NCBI RefSeq assembly: GCF_058153355.1
Contig: NZ_CM177019.1
Length of the DNA stretch: 64,000 nucleotides
Direction: 5' to 3' (one strand)
Shown here: positions 672 to 59,146 of the stretch, piece after piece
Numbering within the stretch: position 1 is the stretch's first letter
How the letters are laid out: each line of letters starts with the position of its first letter
The notes under the pieces: generated by a model
Seen by the model: only the letters and a program-made list of their open reading frames with translations
Database searches by the model: none
What the model was told of the DNA's origin: nothing
Program-made: the position numbers and the translations under genes

Positions 672-786
672 GTAAACTCCGGGCTAATTCTCTGTCGCTA
701 TCATAGCGGTTTTTCAGTGACGAAGAAGATGTTGTTACTTTTCAATCCTTGCCGCTGTGGAAATGAAGGAGTATGCTAATAATAAC

Positions 787-800
787 GTTCGTATACGAAC
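787..800. promoter_or_regulatory. Perfect 14-bp palindrome GTTCGTATACGAAC, candidate MarR-type operator just upstream of the ecdB ribosome-binding site
   Basis: Palindrome read directly; lies between the divergent regulator gene and the ecdB start at 818. Confidence 0.4.
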
Positions 801-817
801 AATTAAGAGAGTAAGCA

Positions 818-1411
818 ATGAAACTGATCGTCGGGATGACAGGGGCTACCGGTGCGCCTCTTGGTGTGGCATTACTGCAAGCGCTGCGGGAGATGCCGAA
901 TGTCGAGACTCATCTGGTGATGTCGAAGTGGGCGAAAACCACTATTGAACTGGAAACGCCTTACAGCGCTCGCGATGTTGCCGCCCTCGCTGACTTCAGC
1001 CATAACCCGGCGGATCAGGCTGCGACCATCTCTTCCGGCTCCTTTCGTACCGACGGCATGATCGTTATTCCATGCAGTATGAAAACGCTCGCCGGTATCC
1101 GCGCTGGTTACGCCGATGGTCTCGTAGGGCGCGCGGCGGACGTCGTGCTCAAAGAAGGCCGCAAACTGGTGCTGGTGCCGCGTGAAATGCCGCTTAGCAC
1201 CATCCATCTCGAAAATATGCTCGCACTTTCGCGCATGGGCGTGGCGATGGTGCCGCCGATGCCTGCCTTTTATAACCATCCCGAAACGGTAGATGACATT
1301 GTCCACCACGTGGTAGCCCGCGTGCTGGATCAATTTGGCCTCGAACATCCTCACGCCAGGCGCTGGCAAGGGTTGCCGCAGGCCCGGAATTTTTCTCAGG
1401 AGAATGAATAA
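818..1411 (+). CDS. ecdB: UbiX-type flavin prenyltransferase, B subunit of hydroxyarylic acid decarboxylase
   Basis: 197-aa ORF with N-terminal GxTGATGA flavoprotein motif (MKLIVGMTGATGAPLG); stop overlaps next start (TAATG). Confidence 0.85.
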   Translation: MKLIVGMTGATGAPLGVALLQALREMPNVETHLVMSKWAKTTIELETPYSARDVAALADFSHNPADQAATISSGSFRTDGMIVIPCSMKTLAGIRAGYADGLVGRAADVVLKEGRKLVLVPREMPLSTIHLENMLALSRMGVAMVPPMPAFYNHPETVDDIVHHVVARVLDQFGLEHPHARRWQGLPQARNFSQENE

Positions 1412-2838
1412 TGGCATTTGATGATTTACGCAGCTTCTTACAGGCGCTTGATGACCACGGCCAGTTACTGAAAATCAGCGAAGAGGTGAACGCGGAACCG
1501 GATCTGGCAGCCGCTGCCAACGCCACCGGGCGTATCGGCGACGGCGCGCCCGCGCTGTGGTTTGATAATATTCGCGGCTTTATCGATGCCCGCGTGGCGA
1601 TGAACACCATCGGCTCCTGGCAGAACCACGCGATTTCCCTCGGGCTGCCACCGAACACACCGGTTAAAAAACAGATTGATGAGTTTATCCGCCGCTGGGA
1701 TAACTTTCCCATTGCCCCGGAACGCCGCGCCAATCCTGCCTGGGCGCAGAACACCGTCGATGGTGACGAGATCAACCTGTTCGATATTCTGCCACTGTTT
1801 CGTTTAAACGATGGCGATGGCGGTTTCTATCTCGACAAAGCGTGCGTGGTTTCCCGCGATCCGCTCGATCCGGATAACTTCGGCAAGCAGAACGTCGGCA
1901 TCTATCGCATGGAAGTGAAGGGTAAGCGTAAGCTCGGCCTGCAACCGGTGCCGATGCACGATATCGCCCTGCATCTGCATAAAGCGGAAGAACGTGGTGA
2001 AGATTTGCCAATTGCCATCACGCTGGGTAACGATCCGATCATCACCCTGATGGGCGCCACCCCGCTGAAATATGATCAATCGGAGTACGAAATGGCGGGC
2101 GCGCTACGCGAAAGCCCGTACCCGATCGCCACCGCCCCGCTGACCGGTTTTGATGTGCCGTGGGGTTCAGAAGTGATCCTCGAAGGGGTTATCGAAAGCC
2201 GCAAACGTGAAATCGAAGGGCCGTTCGGTGAGTTTACCGGGCACTACTCCGGTGGGCGCAACATGACCGTAGTGCGCATCGATAAAGTCTCTTACCGCAC
2301 CAAACCGATTTTTGAATCGCTCTATCTCGGTATGCCGTGGACCGAAATCGACTACCTGATGGGGCCTGCCACCTGCGTGCCGCTTTACCAGCAGTTGAAA
2401 GCCGAGTTCCCGGAAGTGCAGGCGGTGAACGCTATGTACACCCACGGCCTGCTGGCGATTATCTCCACCAAAAAACGCTATGGCGGCTTTGCCCGCGCAG
2501 TGGGCCTGCGTGCGATGACCACGCCGCACGGTCTGGGTTATGTGAAGATGGTGATTATGGTCGATGAAGACGTTGACCCGTTCAACCTGCCGCAGGTGAT
2601 GTGGGCGCTCTCGTCGAAAGTGAACCCGGCAGGGGATCTGGTGCAGTTGCCGAATATGTCAGTACTGGAACTCGACCCTGGCTCAAGCCCGGCGGGGATC
2701 ACCGATAAGCTGATTATCGACGTCACCACGCCTGTCGCCCCGGACAACCGTGGTCACTACAGCCAGCCGGTGGTGGACTTACCGGAAACCAAAGCCTGGG
2801 CTGAAAAACTGACCGCTATGCTGGCCGCACGTAAATAA
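1411..2838 (+). CDS. ecdC: UbiD-family decarboxylase, C subunit of hydroxyarylic acid decarboxylase
   Basis: 475-aa ORF, UbiD-family size and composition; translationally coupled to ecdB. Confidence 0.85.
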   Translation: MAFDDLRSFLQALDDHGQLLKISEEVNAEPDLAAAANATGRIGDGAPALWFDNIRGFIDARVAMNTIGSWQNHAISLGLPPNTPVKKQIDEFIRRWDNFPIAPERRANPAWAQNTVDGDEINLFDILPLFRLNDGDGGFYLDKACVVSRDPLDPDNFGKQNVGIYRMEVKGKRKLGLQPVPMHDIALHLHKAEERGEDLPIAITLGNDPIITLMGATPLKYDQSEYEMAGALRESPYPIATAPLTGFDVPWGSEVILEGVIESRKREIEGPFGEFTGHYSGGRNMTVVRIDKVSYRTKPIFESLYLGMPWTEIDYLMGPATCVPLYQQLKAEFPEVQAVNAMYTHGLLAIISTKKRYGGFARAVGLRAMTTPHGLGYVKMVIMVDEDVDPFNLPQVMWALSSKVNPAGDLVQLPNMSVLELDPGSSPAGITDKLIIDVTTPVAPDNRGHYSQPVVDLPETKAWAEKLTAMLAARK

Positions 2839-2848
2839 GGAGAACAAG

Positions 2849-3085
2849 ATGATTTGTCCACGTTGTGCCGATGAAAAGATTGAAGTGATGGCGAAATCGC
2901 CGGTGAAAAATGTCTGGACGGTCTACCAGTGCCAGCATTGCCTCTATACATGGCGCGATACCGAACCGCTGCGCCGCACCAGCCGCGAACATTATCCCGA
3001 AGCGTTCCGCATGACGCAGAAAGATATTGATGACGCGCCGATGGTGCCGAGCATTCCGCCGCTGCTGGCGGCAGATAAGCGCTAA
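2849..3085 (+). CDS. ecdD: Small zinc-ribbon D subunit of hydroxyarylic acid decarboxylase
   Basis: 78-aa ORF with CPRC...CQHC motif immediately after the UbiD gene, as in B/C/D decarboxylase clusters. Confidence 0.75.
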   Translation: MICPRCADEKIEVMAKSPVKNVWTVYQCQHCLYTWRDTEPLRRTSREHYPEAFRMTQKDIDDAPMVPSIPPLLAADKR

Positions 3086-4768: not shown

Positions 4769-7330
4769 TTACAGCAAACTCTTCAAGCGATAAATCCACT
4801 CCAGCGCCTGACGCGGAGTCAGTGAATCCGGGTCGAGATTTTCCAGTGCTTCGACCGCTGGCGAGGTTTCTTCCGGTACTGACAGCAAAGACATTTGCGT
4901 ACCATCCACTTGCGTAGCGGCGGCGTTCGGCGAAATGCTTTCCAGTTCACGCAGTTTTTGCCGTGCGCGCTTAATAACCTCTTTTGGCACGCCCGCCAGA
5001 GCAGCAACCGCCAGGCCGTAACTTTTGCTCGCCGCGCCATCCTGCACGCTATGCATAAAGGCAATGGTATCACCGTGCTCCAGCGCATCAAGATGCACGT
5101 TGGCGACGCCTTCCATTTTCTCCGGCAGTTGAGTCAGTTCAAAGTAGTGGGTAGCAAACAACGTCAACGCTTTAATCTTATTCGCCAGATTTTCAGCGCA
5201 CGCCCATGCCAGCGACAGACCATCGTAAGTGGACGTTCCGCGCCCAATCTCATCCATCAACACCAGGCTGTACTCCGTGGCGTTATGCAGAATATTAGCG
5301 GTTTCGGTCATCTCCACCATAAAGGTTGAACGCCCGGATGCCAGATCGTCAGCCGCGCCCACACGGGTAAAGATACGGTCAATCGGGCCAATCTCGACTT
5401 TTTGCGCCGGTACGTAGCTGCCGATATAGGCCATCAGCGCAATCAGTGCGGTCTGGCGCATATAGGTACTTTTACCGCCCATGTTCGGACCGGTGATGAT
5501 CAACATGCGACGCTGCGGCGACAGGTTCAGCGGGTTAGCGATAAACGGCTCATTCAGTACCTGTTCAACCACCGGATGGCGACCTTCGGTAATGCGAATG
5601 CCCGGTTTATCAATGAAGGTCGGGCAGGTGTAGTTCAGGGTATAGGCCCGTTCCGCCAGGTTTACCAGTACGTCGAGTTCTGCCAGTGCGCTCGCGCTCT
5701 GTTGCAACGCTTCCAGATGCGGCAACAACAGGTCGAACAACTCTTCATAAAGCTGTTTTTCCAGTGCCAGCGCTTTACCTTTCGAGGTGAGTACTTTGTC
5801 TTCATACTCTTTTAGCTCTGGAATAATGTAGCGTTCGGCGTTTTTCAGCGTCTGGCGACGCATATAGTTGATGGGTGCCAGATGGCTTTGTCCACGGCTA
5901 ATCTGAATGTAATAACCATGCACCGCGTTAAAGCCGACTTTCAGCGTGTCCAGGCCGGTACGTTCACGCTCGCGAACTTCCAGACGCTCCAGATAATCTG
6001 TCGCGCCGTCAGCCAGCGCTCGCCACTCATCCAGCTCTTCGTTATAGCCTGATGCGATAACACCACCGTCGCGTACCAGCACCGGCGGTGTGTCGATGAT
6101 TGCTCGCTCCAGCAGATCGCGCAGCTCTGCAAACTCGCCCATTTTCTCACGCAGCGCCTGTACCGGTGCACTAGCGACATTTTCTAACTGCGCACGCAGC
6201 TCCGGCAGTTGCTGGAAAGCGTGACGCATACGGGCCAGATCGCGTGGGCGGGCAGTCCGTAAAGCCAGACGTGCCAGAATACGTTCCAGGTCGCCGACCT
6301 GACGCAGTACCGGCTGCAGCTCAGCGGTGAAATCCTGCAATGCGCCAATAGTTTGCTGGCGCTCAAGCAACACGCGGGTATCGCGCACTGGCATATGCAG
6401 CCAGCGTTTCAGCATTCGACTCCCCATCGGCGTTACAGTGCAGTCGAGCACGGAAGCCAGCGTGTTTTCCGCACCGCCCGCCAGGTTCTGGGTAATTTCC
6501 AGGTTACGACGCGTCGCGGCATCCATAATGATGCTGTCCTGCTCACGTTCCATAGTGATAGAACGAATATGCGGCAGAGTCGTACGTTGAGTATCTTTCG
6601 CATACTGCAACAGACAACCGGCGGCACAAAGTCCGCGCGGCGCGTTCTCGACGCCAAAACCGACCAGATCGCGAGTGCCAAATTGTAGATTCAACTGCTG
6701 GCGCGCGGTGTCGATTTCAAACTCCCACAGCGGGCGACGGCGCAAGCCGCGACGACCTTCAATCAGCGACATTTCAGCAAAATCTTCTGCATACAGCAGT
6801 TCCGCCGGATTAGTGCGTTGCAGTTCTGCCGCCATCGTTTCGCGGTCAGCCGGTTCGCTCAGGCGAAAACGACCAGAACTGATATCCAGCGTCGCATAGC
6901 CGAATCCTTTGCTGTCCTGCCAGATAGCAGCCAGCAGGTTGTCCTGACGTTCCTGCAACAGCGCTTCATCGCTGATGGTGCCCGGCGTAACGATACGCAC
7001 AACTTTGCGCTCGACCGGCCCTTTGCTGGTCGCCGGATCGCCAATCTGTTCACAAATAGCAACGGACTCGCCCTGATTCACCAGTTTGGCGAGATAGTTT
7101 TCCACCGCATGGTAGGGAATCCCCGCCATCGGGATCGGCTCTCCCGCCGAAGCGCCGCGTTTGGTCAGTGAAATATCCAGCAGTTGTGACGCACGTTTTG
7201 CGTCGTCATAAAACAGTTCGTAAAAGTCACCCATCCGGTAGAACAGCAGGATCTCGGGATGCTGGGCTTTCAGCTTGAGATACTGCTGCATCATTGGCGT
7301 ATGGGCGTCAAAATTTTCTATTGCACTCAT
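4769..7330 (-). CDS. mutS: DNA mismatch repair protein MutS
   Basis: 853-aa [24 protein letters not shown]..., Walker [10 protein letters not shown]; full length. Confidence 0.97.
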
Positions 7331-48919: not shown

Positions 48920-49012
48920 GGTGAGGTGGCCGAGAGGCTGAAGGCGCTCCCCTGCTAAGGGAGTATGCGGTCAAAAGCTGCATCCGGGGTTCGAATCCCC
49001 GCCTCACCGCCA
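48920..49012 (+). tRNA. serV: tRNA-Ser (GCU)
   Basis: 93-nt GGTGAGGTGGCCGAGAGGC...CGCCTCACCGCCA with long variable arm and encoded CCA. Confidence 0.95.
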
Positions 49013-49015
49013 TTT

Positions 49016-49092
49016 GCATCCGTAGCTCAGCTGGATAGAGTACTCGGCTACGAACCGAGCGGTCGGAGGTTCGAATCCTCCCGGATGCACCA
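49016..49092 (+). tRNA. argV: tRNA-Arg (ACG), copy 1
   Basis: 77-nt GCATCCGTAGCTCAGCTGGATAGAGTACTCGGCTACGAACCGAGCGGTCGGAGGTTCGAATCCTCCCGGATGCACCA; anticodon loop CT-ACG-AA. Confidence 0.95.
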
Positions 49093-49155
49093 TATTCTAC
49101 GAAATCTTCAGCGATGAAGGTGTCGAAGAGGTGGCGGTACTAACCGCAAGCACTA

Positions 49156-49227
49156 GGGAGGATAACGTTGCTTTAGCAACGGCCCGAAGGGCGAGCCGTA
49201 AGGCGAGTAATCCTCCCGGATGCACCA
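49156..49227 (+). other. Degenerate tRNA-Arg remnant (3' acceptor/T-stem half retained, body replaced)
   Basis: gggagg...[unrelated ~50 nt]...aatcctcccggatgcacca; the last 19 nt are identical to the 3' end of the intact copies. Confidence 0.5.
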
Positions 49228-49291
49228 TCTCTTACTTGATACGGCTTTAGTAGCGGTATCAAAAAATCTGCAGTAAAGTAAGTTTCCCGAT

Positions 49292-49368
49292 GCATCCGTA
49301 GCTCAGCTGGATAGAGTACTCGGCTACGAACCGAGCGGTCGGAGGTTCGAATCCTCCCGGATGCACCA
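49292..49368 (+). tRNA. tRNA-Arg (ACG), copy 2
   Basis: Identical 77-nt sequence to copy 1. Confidence 0.95.
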
Positions 49369-49470
49369 TATTCTCCGTAATCATCAGTGATGATGGTTAA
49401 GATGGATTTTCTTATTTGATATGGCTTTAGTAGCGGTATCAATATCAGCAGTAAAATAAGTTTTCCCGAT

Positions 49471-49547
49471 GCATCCGTAGCTCAGCTGGATAGAGTACTC
49501 GGCTACGAACCGAGCGGTCGGAGGTTCGAATCCTCCCGGATGCACCA
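49471..49547 (+). tRNA. tRNA-Arg (ACG), copy 3
   Basis: Identical 77-nt sequence to copy 1. Confidence 0.95.
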
Positions 49548-52389: not shown

Positions 52390-52462
52390 AAAAAGGCCAC
52401 TCGTGAGTGGCCAAAATTTCATCTCTGAATTCAGGGATGATGATAACAAATGCGCGTCTTTC
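52390..52462 (-). ncRNA. micA: MicA (SraD) small regulatory RNA
   Basis: Minus strand reads GAAAGACGCGCATTTGTTATCATCATCCCTGAATTCAGAGATGAAATTTTGGCCACTCACGAGTGGCCTTTTT, the MicA sequence with its terminator, between gshA and luxS. Confidence 0.9.
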
Positions 52463-58955: not shown

Positions 58956-59067
58956 TATTTTTATTCATCAGGTGATGATTAAGCTGGAAATCAATAATAG
59001 CGGATGTTGATGAATATGGGATGAAAGATAGATTGTTGAAATGTGCGGTGTGGTTTGTAGACATGAT

Positions 59068-59128
59068 AAGACGCGGCCGCGTCGCATCAGGCATTGTGTA
59101 CAGAGCGGCGGATAAGGCGAAAACGCCT
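59068..59128. repeat. REP elements between ygaY and proX
   Basis: gacgcggccgcgtcgcatcaggc and gcggcggataaggcgaaaacgccttatccgccc palindromes. Confidence 0.75.
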
Positions 59129-59146
59129 TATCCGCCCGAATAAAAA

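Follow-up and report, generated by a model that had tools for sequence, protein, structure and literature searches.

The perfect 14-bp palindrome at positions 787-800 of the window, by which we mean the whole 64,000-nucleotide stretch of DNA analysed here, is very probably (probability about 0.92) the operator of the divergently encoded MarR-family regulator HosA, which would repress the hydroxyarylic acid decarboxylase (HAD) operon ecdBCD until 4-hydroxybenzoate (4-HBA) arrives. The first-pass annotation had proposed the palindrome as an operator for the divergent MarR-type regulator, and this proposal is supported by the identification of the regulator as HosA, by the match to the published HosA site and by conservation of the site in 79 of 79 loci. 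Its further proposal, that the decarboxylase operon is repressed until a phenolic acid is present, agrees with the published findings on the E. coli orthologue, the ligand being specifically 4-HBA. For the window, binding, repression and 4-HBA release at 787-800 are predicted by analogy with that orthologue.

The palindrome and its genomic context

The sequence at 787-800 is GTTCGTATACGAAC, and both direct reading and a script found it to be its own reverse complement, which confirms the coordinates and the self-complementarity given at first pass. The minus-strand MarR-family gene and ecdB are separated by 146 bp (672-817). The palindrome is in this intergenic region, just 5' of the AAGAGAG ribosome-binding site, and 17 bp separate its end from the ATG of ecdB at 818. 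Its earlier placement between the divergent regulator gene (264-671) and the ecdB ribosome-binding site (805-811) was likewise correct. The sequence occurs as a single copy in the window, where the next-best matches carry 3 mismatches. Further HosA boxes were not found in the window; only matches with 2-3 mismatches occurred, at chance frequency.

The window contains 4 perfect 14-bp palindromes, starting at 787, 33361, 42641 and 59070, while a mean of 5.4 is expected from 200 dinucleotide-preserving shuffles of the window. The chance of such a palindrome falling inside the 146-bp region is ca. 1% (208 of 20000 shuffles). At the scale of the window a perfect 14-bp palindrome is thus unremarkable by itself and carries no statistical weight. 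Because of these counts we rejected palindromy alone as evidence of function, and the case for an operator therefore rests on context, conservation and literature. An Rfam search gave no match anywhere near the palindrome locus. Elsewhere in the window, gathering-level Rfam matches were obtained for four tRNAs, the MicA sRNA and naRNA4 (CssrE), at 48920-49544, 52391-52462 (minus strand) and 59060-59137 (minus strand). The naRNA4 match overlaps the perfect 14-bp palindrome starting at 59070.

The product of the regulator gene aligned to PDB entry 8aga, 'Transcriptional regulator HosA', with an E-value of 2.1e-82 and 4 differences over 134 aligned residues, which makes it ca. 97% identical to the crystallised E. 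coli HosA. In E. coli genomes the hosA gene is annotated as a MarR family regulator. Judged by its sequence, the regulator encoded at 264-671 is HosA. The three divergent genes all score above the curated NCBIfam cut-offs for subunits of non-oxidative HAD. The coordinates of these genes and of the predicted regulatory elements are collected in Table 1.

Table 1. Genes and predicted regulatory elements of the hosA-ecdBCD locus, in window coordinates.
Feature	Position	Strand	Properties and evidence
hosA, MarR-family winged-helix repressor, 135 aa	264-671	-	ORF; Pfam MarR 1.1e-12; PDB 8aga
Predicted -35 of ecdB promoter, TTGCCG	749-754	+	Hexamer scan, 8/12; conserved cTTGcc block
Predicted -10 of ecdB promoter, TATGCT	772-777	+	17-bp spacer; conserved T-A-n-n-n-T block
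Predicted HosA operator, GTTCGTATACGAAC	787-800		14-bp perfect palindrome; half-sites GTTCG and CGAAC, 4-bp TATA centre
Ribosome-binding site of ecdB, AAGAGAG	805-811	+	Ends 6 nt before ATG at 818; GAGG-like block at the same place in orthologues
ecdB, UbiX-like flavin prenyltransferase, HAD subunit B	818-1411	+	NCBIfam VdcB, 312 bits (cut-off 290)
ecdC, UbiD-family decarboxylase, HAD subunit C	1411-2838	+	NCBIfam VdcC, 787 bits (cut-off 650)
ecdD, small HAD subunit D	2849-3085	+	NCBIfam VdcD, 121 bits (cut-off 30)

The locus is situated in the polymorphic rpoS-mutS region. The 3' end of rpoS (1-142) and its terminator lie upstream of hosA in window numbering, and mutS (4769-7330, minus strand), pphB and a TPR gene are found downstream of ecdBCD; E. 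coli genomes show a matching order. The segment 150-3200 of the window was at least 80% covered in 2378 of 5426 complete E. coli genomes, and identity to E. coli in this hosA-ecd segment peaks at 96.7%. The mutS gene of the window was 90-95% identical to 5395 of 5419 E. coli records and 95-99% identical to only 24. Because of this mutS divergence from most E. coli, we assign the window to an Escherichia lineage that is atypical or cryptic. The closest E. coli genome (strain 2020CK-00188) has the rpoS gene beside the locus, at 2001-2994 of the extracted sequence (L001), annotated as a frameshifted pseudogene.

Identity with the published HosA site

The HosA operator at 787-800 is already known, and the HosA/4-HBA switch has been characterised and is in use in in-vitro biosensors. 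A biosensor described in Sci Adv in 2018 (PMC6261655) was built with HosA of E. coli UMN026 and the '14-bp TFBS of HosA'; EMSA showed that HosA was bound and that 4-HBA, with a KD of 4.7 uM, dissociated the complex. The oligonucleotide DNAHosA-F0 from that work, CAGAGGCGTATTTTAATAATAAC-GTT(T)CGTATACGAAC-AATTAAGAGAATAAACATGAG, is equal to window positions 778-810 save for one additional T printed in the table, and with the same exception it is the native E. coli sequence of locus L085. In the biosensor probe dsDNA(HosA)-F of a 2019 Nat Commun paper (PMC6694116), the HosA site is capitalised as CGTTCGTATACGAACA inside otherwise unrelated DNA, and window positions 786-801 are identical to it. The supplement of the latter paper describes an EMSA with CBD-HosA, also with p-HBA added. 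Both papers report HosA binding in EMSA and release by 4-HBA, and both cite Roy & Ranjan 2016 (Biochemistry 55:1120, pmid 26818787).

Several HosA-site oligonucleotides in the two supplements appear as GTTTCGTATACGAAC, with a length of 15 nt, while the text states 14 bp. The reverse oligonucleotide of the Nat Commun paper has one additional T and the forward oligonucleotide has GTTCGTATACGAAC. Since the genomes and this forward oligonucleotide have GTTCG, we read the 15-nt form as typographical, and it is probably an error carried between the papers.

The HAD locus of E. coli UMN026, the system of Roy & Ranjan 2016, has the same gene order, with hosA divergent from ecdBCD between rpoS and mutS. 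Its HosA operator consists of the same 14 bp, and the immediate flanks TAATAATAAC and AATTAAGAGA are also the same. The differences between the two loci are at strain level only, with 4 substitutions in the HosA of the window and a few changes farther out in the intergenic region. In the account that a 2024 preprint gives of Roy & Ranjan 2016 (pmid 26818787), HosA represses both the HAD operon and itself, with the HosA box implicated in this autorepression, the transcription start precedes the palindromic site, and 4-HBA is the inducer that relieves repression.

Conservation of the HosA box

A scan for HosA relatives with one genome per species yielded 80 loci from ca. 25 enterobacterial genera, with HosA identities of 58-99%. 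In 79 of the 80 loci hosA is transcribed away from ecdB, or from ecdC in those loci that lack ecdB. A box of the form GTTCG-NNNN-CGAAC, mismatched at no more than one arm position, is present between hosA and ecd in all 79 ecd-linked loci, and its end is usually 15-19 bp before the ecd start codon. The distribution of the box reaches from Escherichia to Rahnella, Erwinia, Leminorella and Mangrovibacter, where HosA identity is down to 58%. Of the ten arm positions only G1 varies, being A in 5 Rahnella loci; the other nine are invariant (2.0 bits). Most positions flanking the box have ca. 0.5 bit or less in the 79 loci. The consensus is GTTCG-YRYR-CGAAC, and its centre varies by transitions only (TATA 32, TACA 23, TATG 10, TGTA 8, CATA 4, TGTG 2). 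The box is a perfect palindrome in 27 loci and imperfect in 52, in 47 of these solely through the central four bases. Exact palindromy is therefore not required, since perfect boxes occur in only 27 of the 79 loci.

The sole HosA-like locus without an ecd operon served as a negative control, and no box was found anywhere in its 6.4 kb. This locus (L078) is from Rahnella perminowiae, and its HosA-like gene, which is 63% identical, may be a paralogue acting on a different target. Within HosA, the mean column identity is ca. 0.85-0.92 for the putative DNA-binding region versus 0.68 for the C-terminal part, with helix boundaries assumed from the family fold.

In eight loci (L047, L062, L063, L066, L072, L077, L079 and L081) there is no ecdB homologue beside hosA, and the divergent genes begin with ecdC. 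These loci belong to Pluralibacter, Superficieibacter, Cedecea, Erwinia, Mangrovibacter and some Rahnella, and they keep the HosA box 23-63 bp before the ecdC start. Another locus (L002), on the short contig DXKH01000072.1 labelled as a Citrobacter sp. MAG, encodes a HosA that is 99% identical to that of the window; by this resemblance it is Escherichia-like and probably mis-binned. Its ecdB has a 1-bp insertion, ctcttaggtgtgg versus ctcttggtgtgg, which would be a frameshift.

Predicted promoter elements and probable position of the operator

With a looser hexamer scan, a weak ecdB promoter candidate, TTGCCG-17-TATGCT, was obtained at a score of 8/12; a stricter sigma-70 consensus scan over 100-1000, with a threshold of 9/12, called no site. 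In the intergenic alignment the cTTGcc and T-A-n-n-n-T blocks are conserved across genera just upstream of the box. From the predicted promoter, transcription of ecdB would start near 784, which puts the operator at about +4 to +17, in a stretch that RNA polymerase has to cover. The operator is thus probably located within the start of the transcript and not upstream of the promoter, and the predicted placement agrees with the second-hand report, in the preprint, of a site downstream of the transcription start.

Within the intergenic region, conservation is second highest in a palindromic CTATsATAGC block at 697-706, which is CTATCATAGC in the window and CTATGATAGC in other genera. It is kept in nearly all aligned genera, ca. 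25 bp upstream of the hosA ATG. The block probably holds the -10 element of hosA, read as TATGAT on the minus strand, and it could also be the site of another protein. A terminator scan flags 694-710, which encloses the block, on the plus strand.

A promoter-like candidate on the hosA strand consists of TTAATT (806-801) and TATTAT (784-779), spaced by 16 bp on the minus strand and scoring 8/12. The HosA box falls exactly in its spacer, which makes the candidate a possible route to hosA autorepression. If this promoter were the principal target, the box would serve mainly for hosA autorepression and repression of ecdBCD would be secondary. Such a role is in line with the autorepression of HosA described in the preprint, with the presence of a single box in the Escherichia intergenic region and with the position of the box in the spacer of the 8/12 candidate. 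However, the TTAATT and TATTAT hexamers are without conservation outside Escherichia, and the conserved CTATsATAGC block is a better candidate for the hosA -10. Furthermore, in most loci the position of the box follows the ecd start codon rather than hosA, and repression of the HAD operon is itself part of the preprint's account. We therefore consider it unlikely that autorepression is the main function of the box. Autorepression of hosA is best seen as an added role that is compatible with an operator for ecdBCD, and not as a rival to it.

A transcript that starts near 784 would allow the palindrome to form a hairpin with a 5-bp stem and a 4-nt loop at the 5' end of the ecdB mRNA, and the element might then act on mRNA stability or translation, or as a weak minus-strand terminator, instead of as a protein-binding DNA site. 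The orthologue variation, which is limited to the would-be loop, fits such a structure, and 801-786 on the minus strand is picked up by the terminator scan. The hairpin is weak, however, with a centroid energy of -4.9 kcal/mol, and shuffled sequences fold at least as well as the region (z = 0.43). The stem does not include the ribosome-binding site. There is no covariation between the arms, which are invariant, and this points to sequence-specific recognition by a protein and not to RNA structure, and the double-stranded site alone was reported to be bound by HosA (PMC6694116). The flagged terminator was rejected as a trivial by-product of a palindrome followed by a T-rich stretch, and it cannot terminate hosA since it is located upstream of that gene. 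An RNA element in place of an operator is accordingly very improbable, and an RNA function of the palindrome would be a minor addition. A functionless chance palindrome in an AT-rich intergenic region would agree with the count of 4 against 5.4 in shuffles, but this reading is effectively refuted by the retention of the box in place in all ecd-linked loci, with near-invariant arms between diverged flanks, and by the published EMSA binding of HosA to the identical sequence (PMC6261655, PMC6694116).

A second box in other genera

A second HosA-like box was found 56-57 bp upstream of the proximal one in 34 of the 79 orthologous loci (L007, L009, L017-L020, L025, L027, L030-L032, L035-L038, L040, L042-L057, L061 and L064). 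These loci are from Klebsiella, Enterobacter, Kluyvera, Lelliottia, Leclercia, Pseudocitrobacter and Pluralibacter. In most cases the distal box reads GATCG-YRYR-CGAAC, its right arm being intact and its left arm degenerate. It is situated ca. 86-95 bp before the ATG of ecdB or ecdC and ends 3-4 bp before the ecdB -35 element; the equivalent region of the window is ca. 727-745. In total, the 80 loci (493 kb) contain 118 boxes with no more than one arm mismatch, of which roughly a dozen lie outside the proximal and distal positions. In Escherichia, including the window, and in Citrobacter and Salmonella the distal box was not found and the proximal box occurs alone.

The Escherichia intergenic region is ca. 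26 bp shorter than that of most other aligned genera, the difference falling at window position ca. 713-714. The missing segment, between the CTATCATAGC block and the ecdB promoter, includes a T-rich ttttttaa, which could be the hosA -35 element elsewhere (TTAAAA on the minus strand). We tentatively raise the possibility, with the odds against it, that the operator architecture differs between lineages, with one-box and two-box layouts, and that the single Escherichia box might occupy the spacer of a hosA promoter. The distal box is the only item here that is possibly unreported, and it may already stand in Roy & Ranjan 2016.

Comparison with related systems

As is general for operators of the MarR family, the site at 787-800 is palindromic, lies in the intergenic region of its own regulator and overlaps promoter or leader elements. 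PcaV from Streptomyces coelicolor is a MarR dimer that binds a palindromic operator located between divergent genes, and a ligand of the hydroxybenzoate type makes the dimer leave the DNA. This protocatechuate-responsive MarR-family repressor (PDB 4fht) is the closest solved homologue of the window regulator outside HosA, with an E-value of 5.2e-16. PcaV differs from HosA in controlling beta-ketoadipate genes and not a UbiD/UbiX decarboxylase, in its operator sequence and ligand, and in coming from a distant organism. The E. coli MarR/marO system, the archetype of the family, also has a winged-helix dimer on a palindromic site that overlaps promoter or leader elements, with release by phenolic compounds. 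HosA scored 26.9 bits against the MarR equivalog model, for which the cut-off is 240, and the operator sequence and regulon differ. The bsdBCD operon of Bacillus subtilis is orthologous to ecdBCD, with UbiX-like, UbiD-like and small subunits, and is induced by hydroxybenzoates. Its regulator BsdA (YclA), however, is a LysR-type activator and not a MarR repressor, and both the regulatory logic and the DNA site are unrelated.

Proposed mechanism and significance

In the mechanism that we propose, a HosA dimer would place its recognition helices, as expected from the MarR-family fold, on the half-sites GTTCG and CGAAC. From a position just downstream of the predicted ecdB promoter, it would keep RNA polymerase from using that promoter and ecdBCD would be off, with the occlusion geometry deduced from the predicted promoter. 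On its arrival 4-HBA, which is a substrate of EcdBCD, would bind HosA and take it off the DNA, and ecdBCD would be expressed only when this substrate is present; both steps are as published for the E. coli orthologue.

For the palindrome itself the result brings little beyond correct annotation, and it illustrates that a real operator could be inferred at first pass from sequence alone. The box GTTCG-YRYR-CGAAC defined over 79 species aids annotation of the operon in other Enterobacterales and the choice of operator variants for sensor design. The one-box and two-box layouts could differ in tightness of repression, in co-operativity and in autoregulation of hosA.
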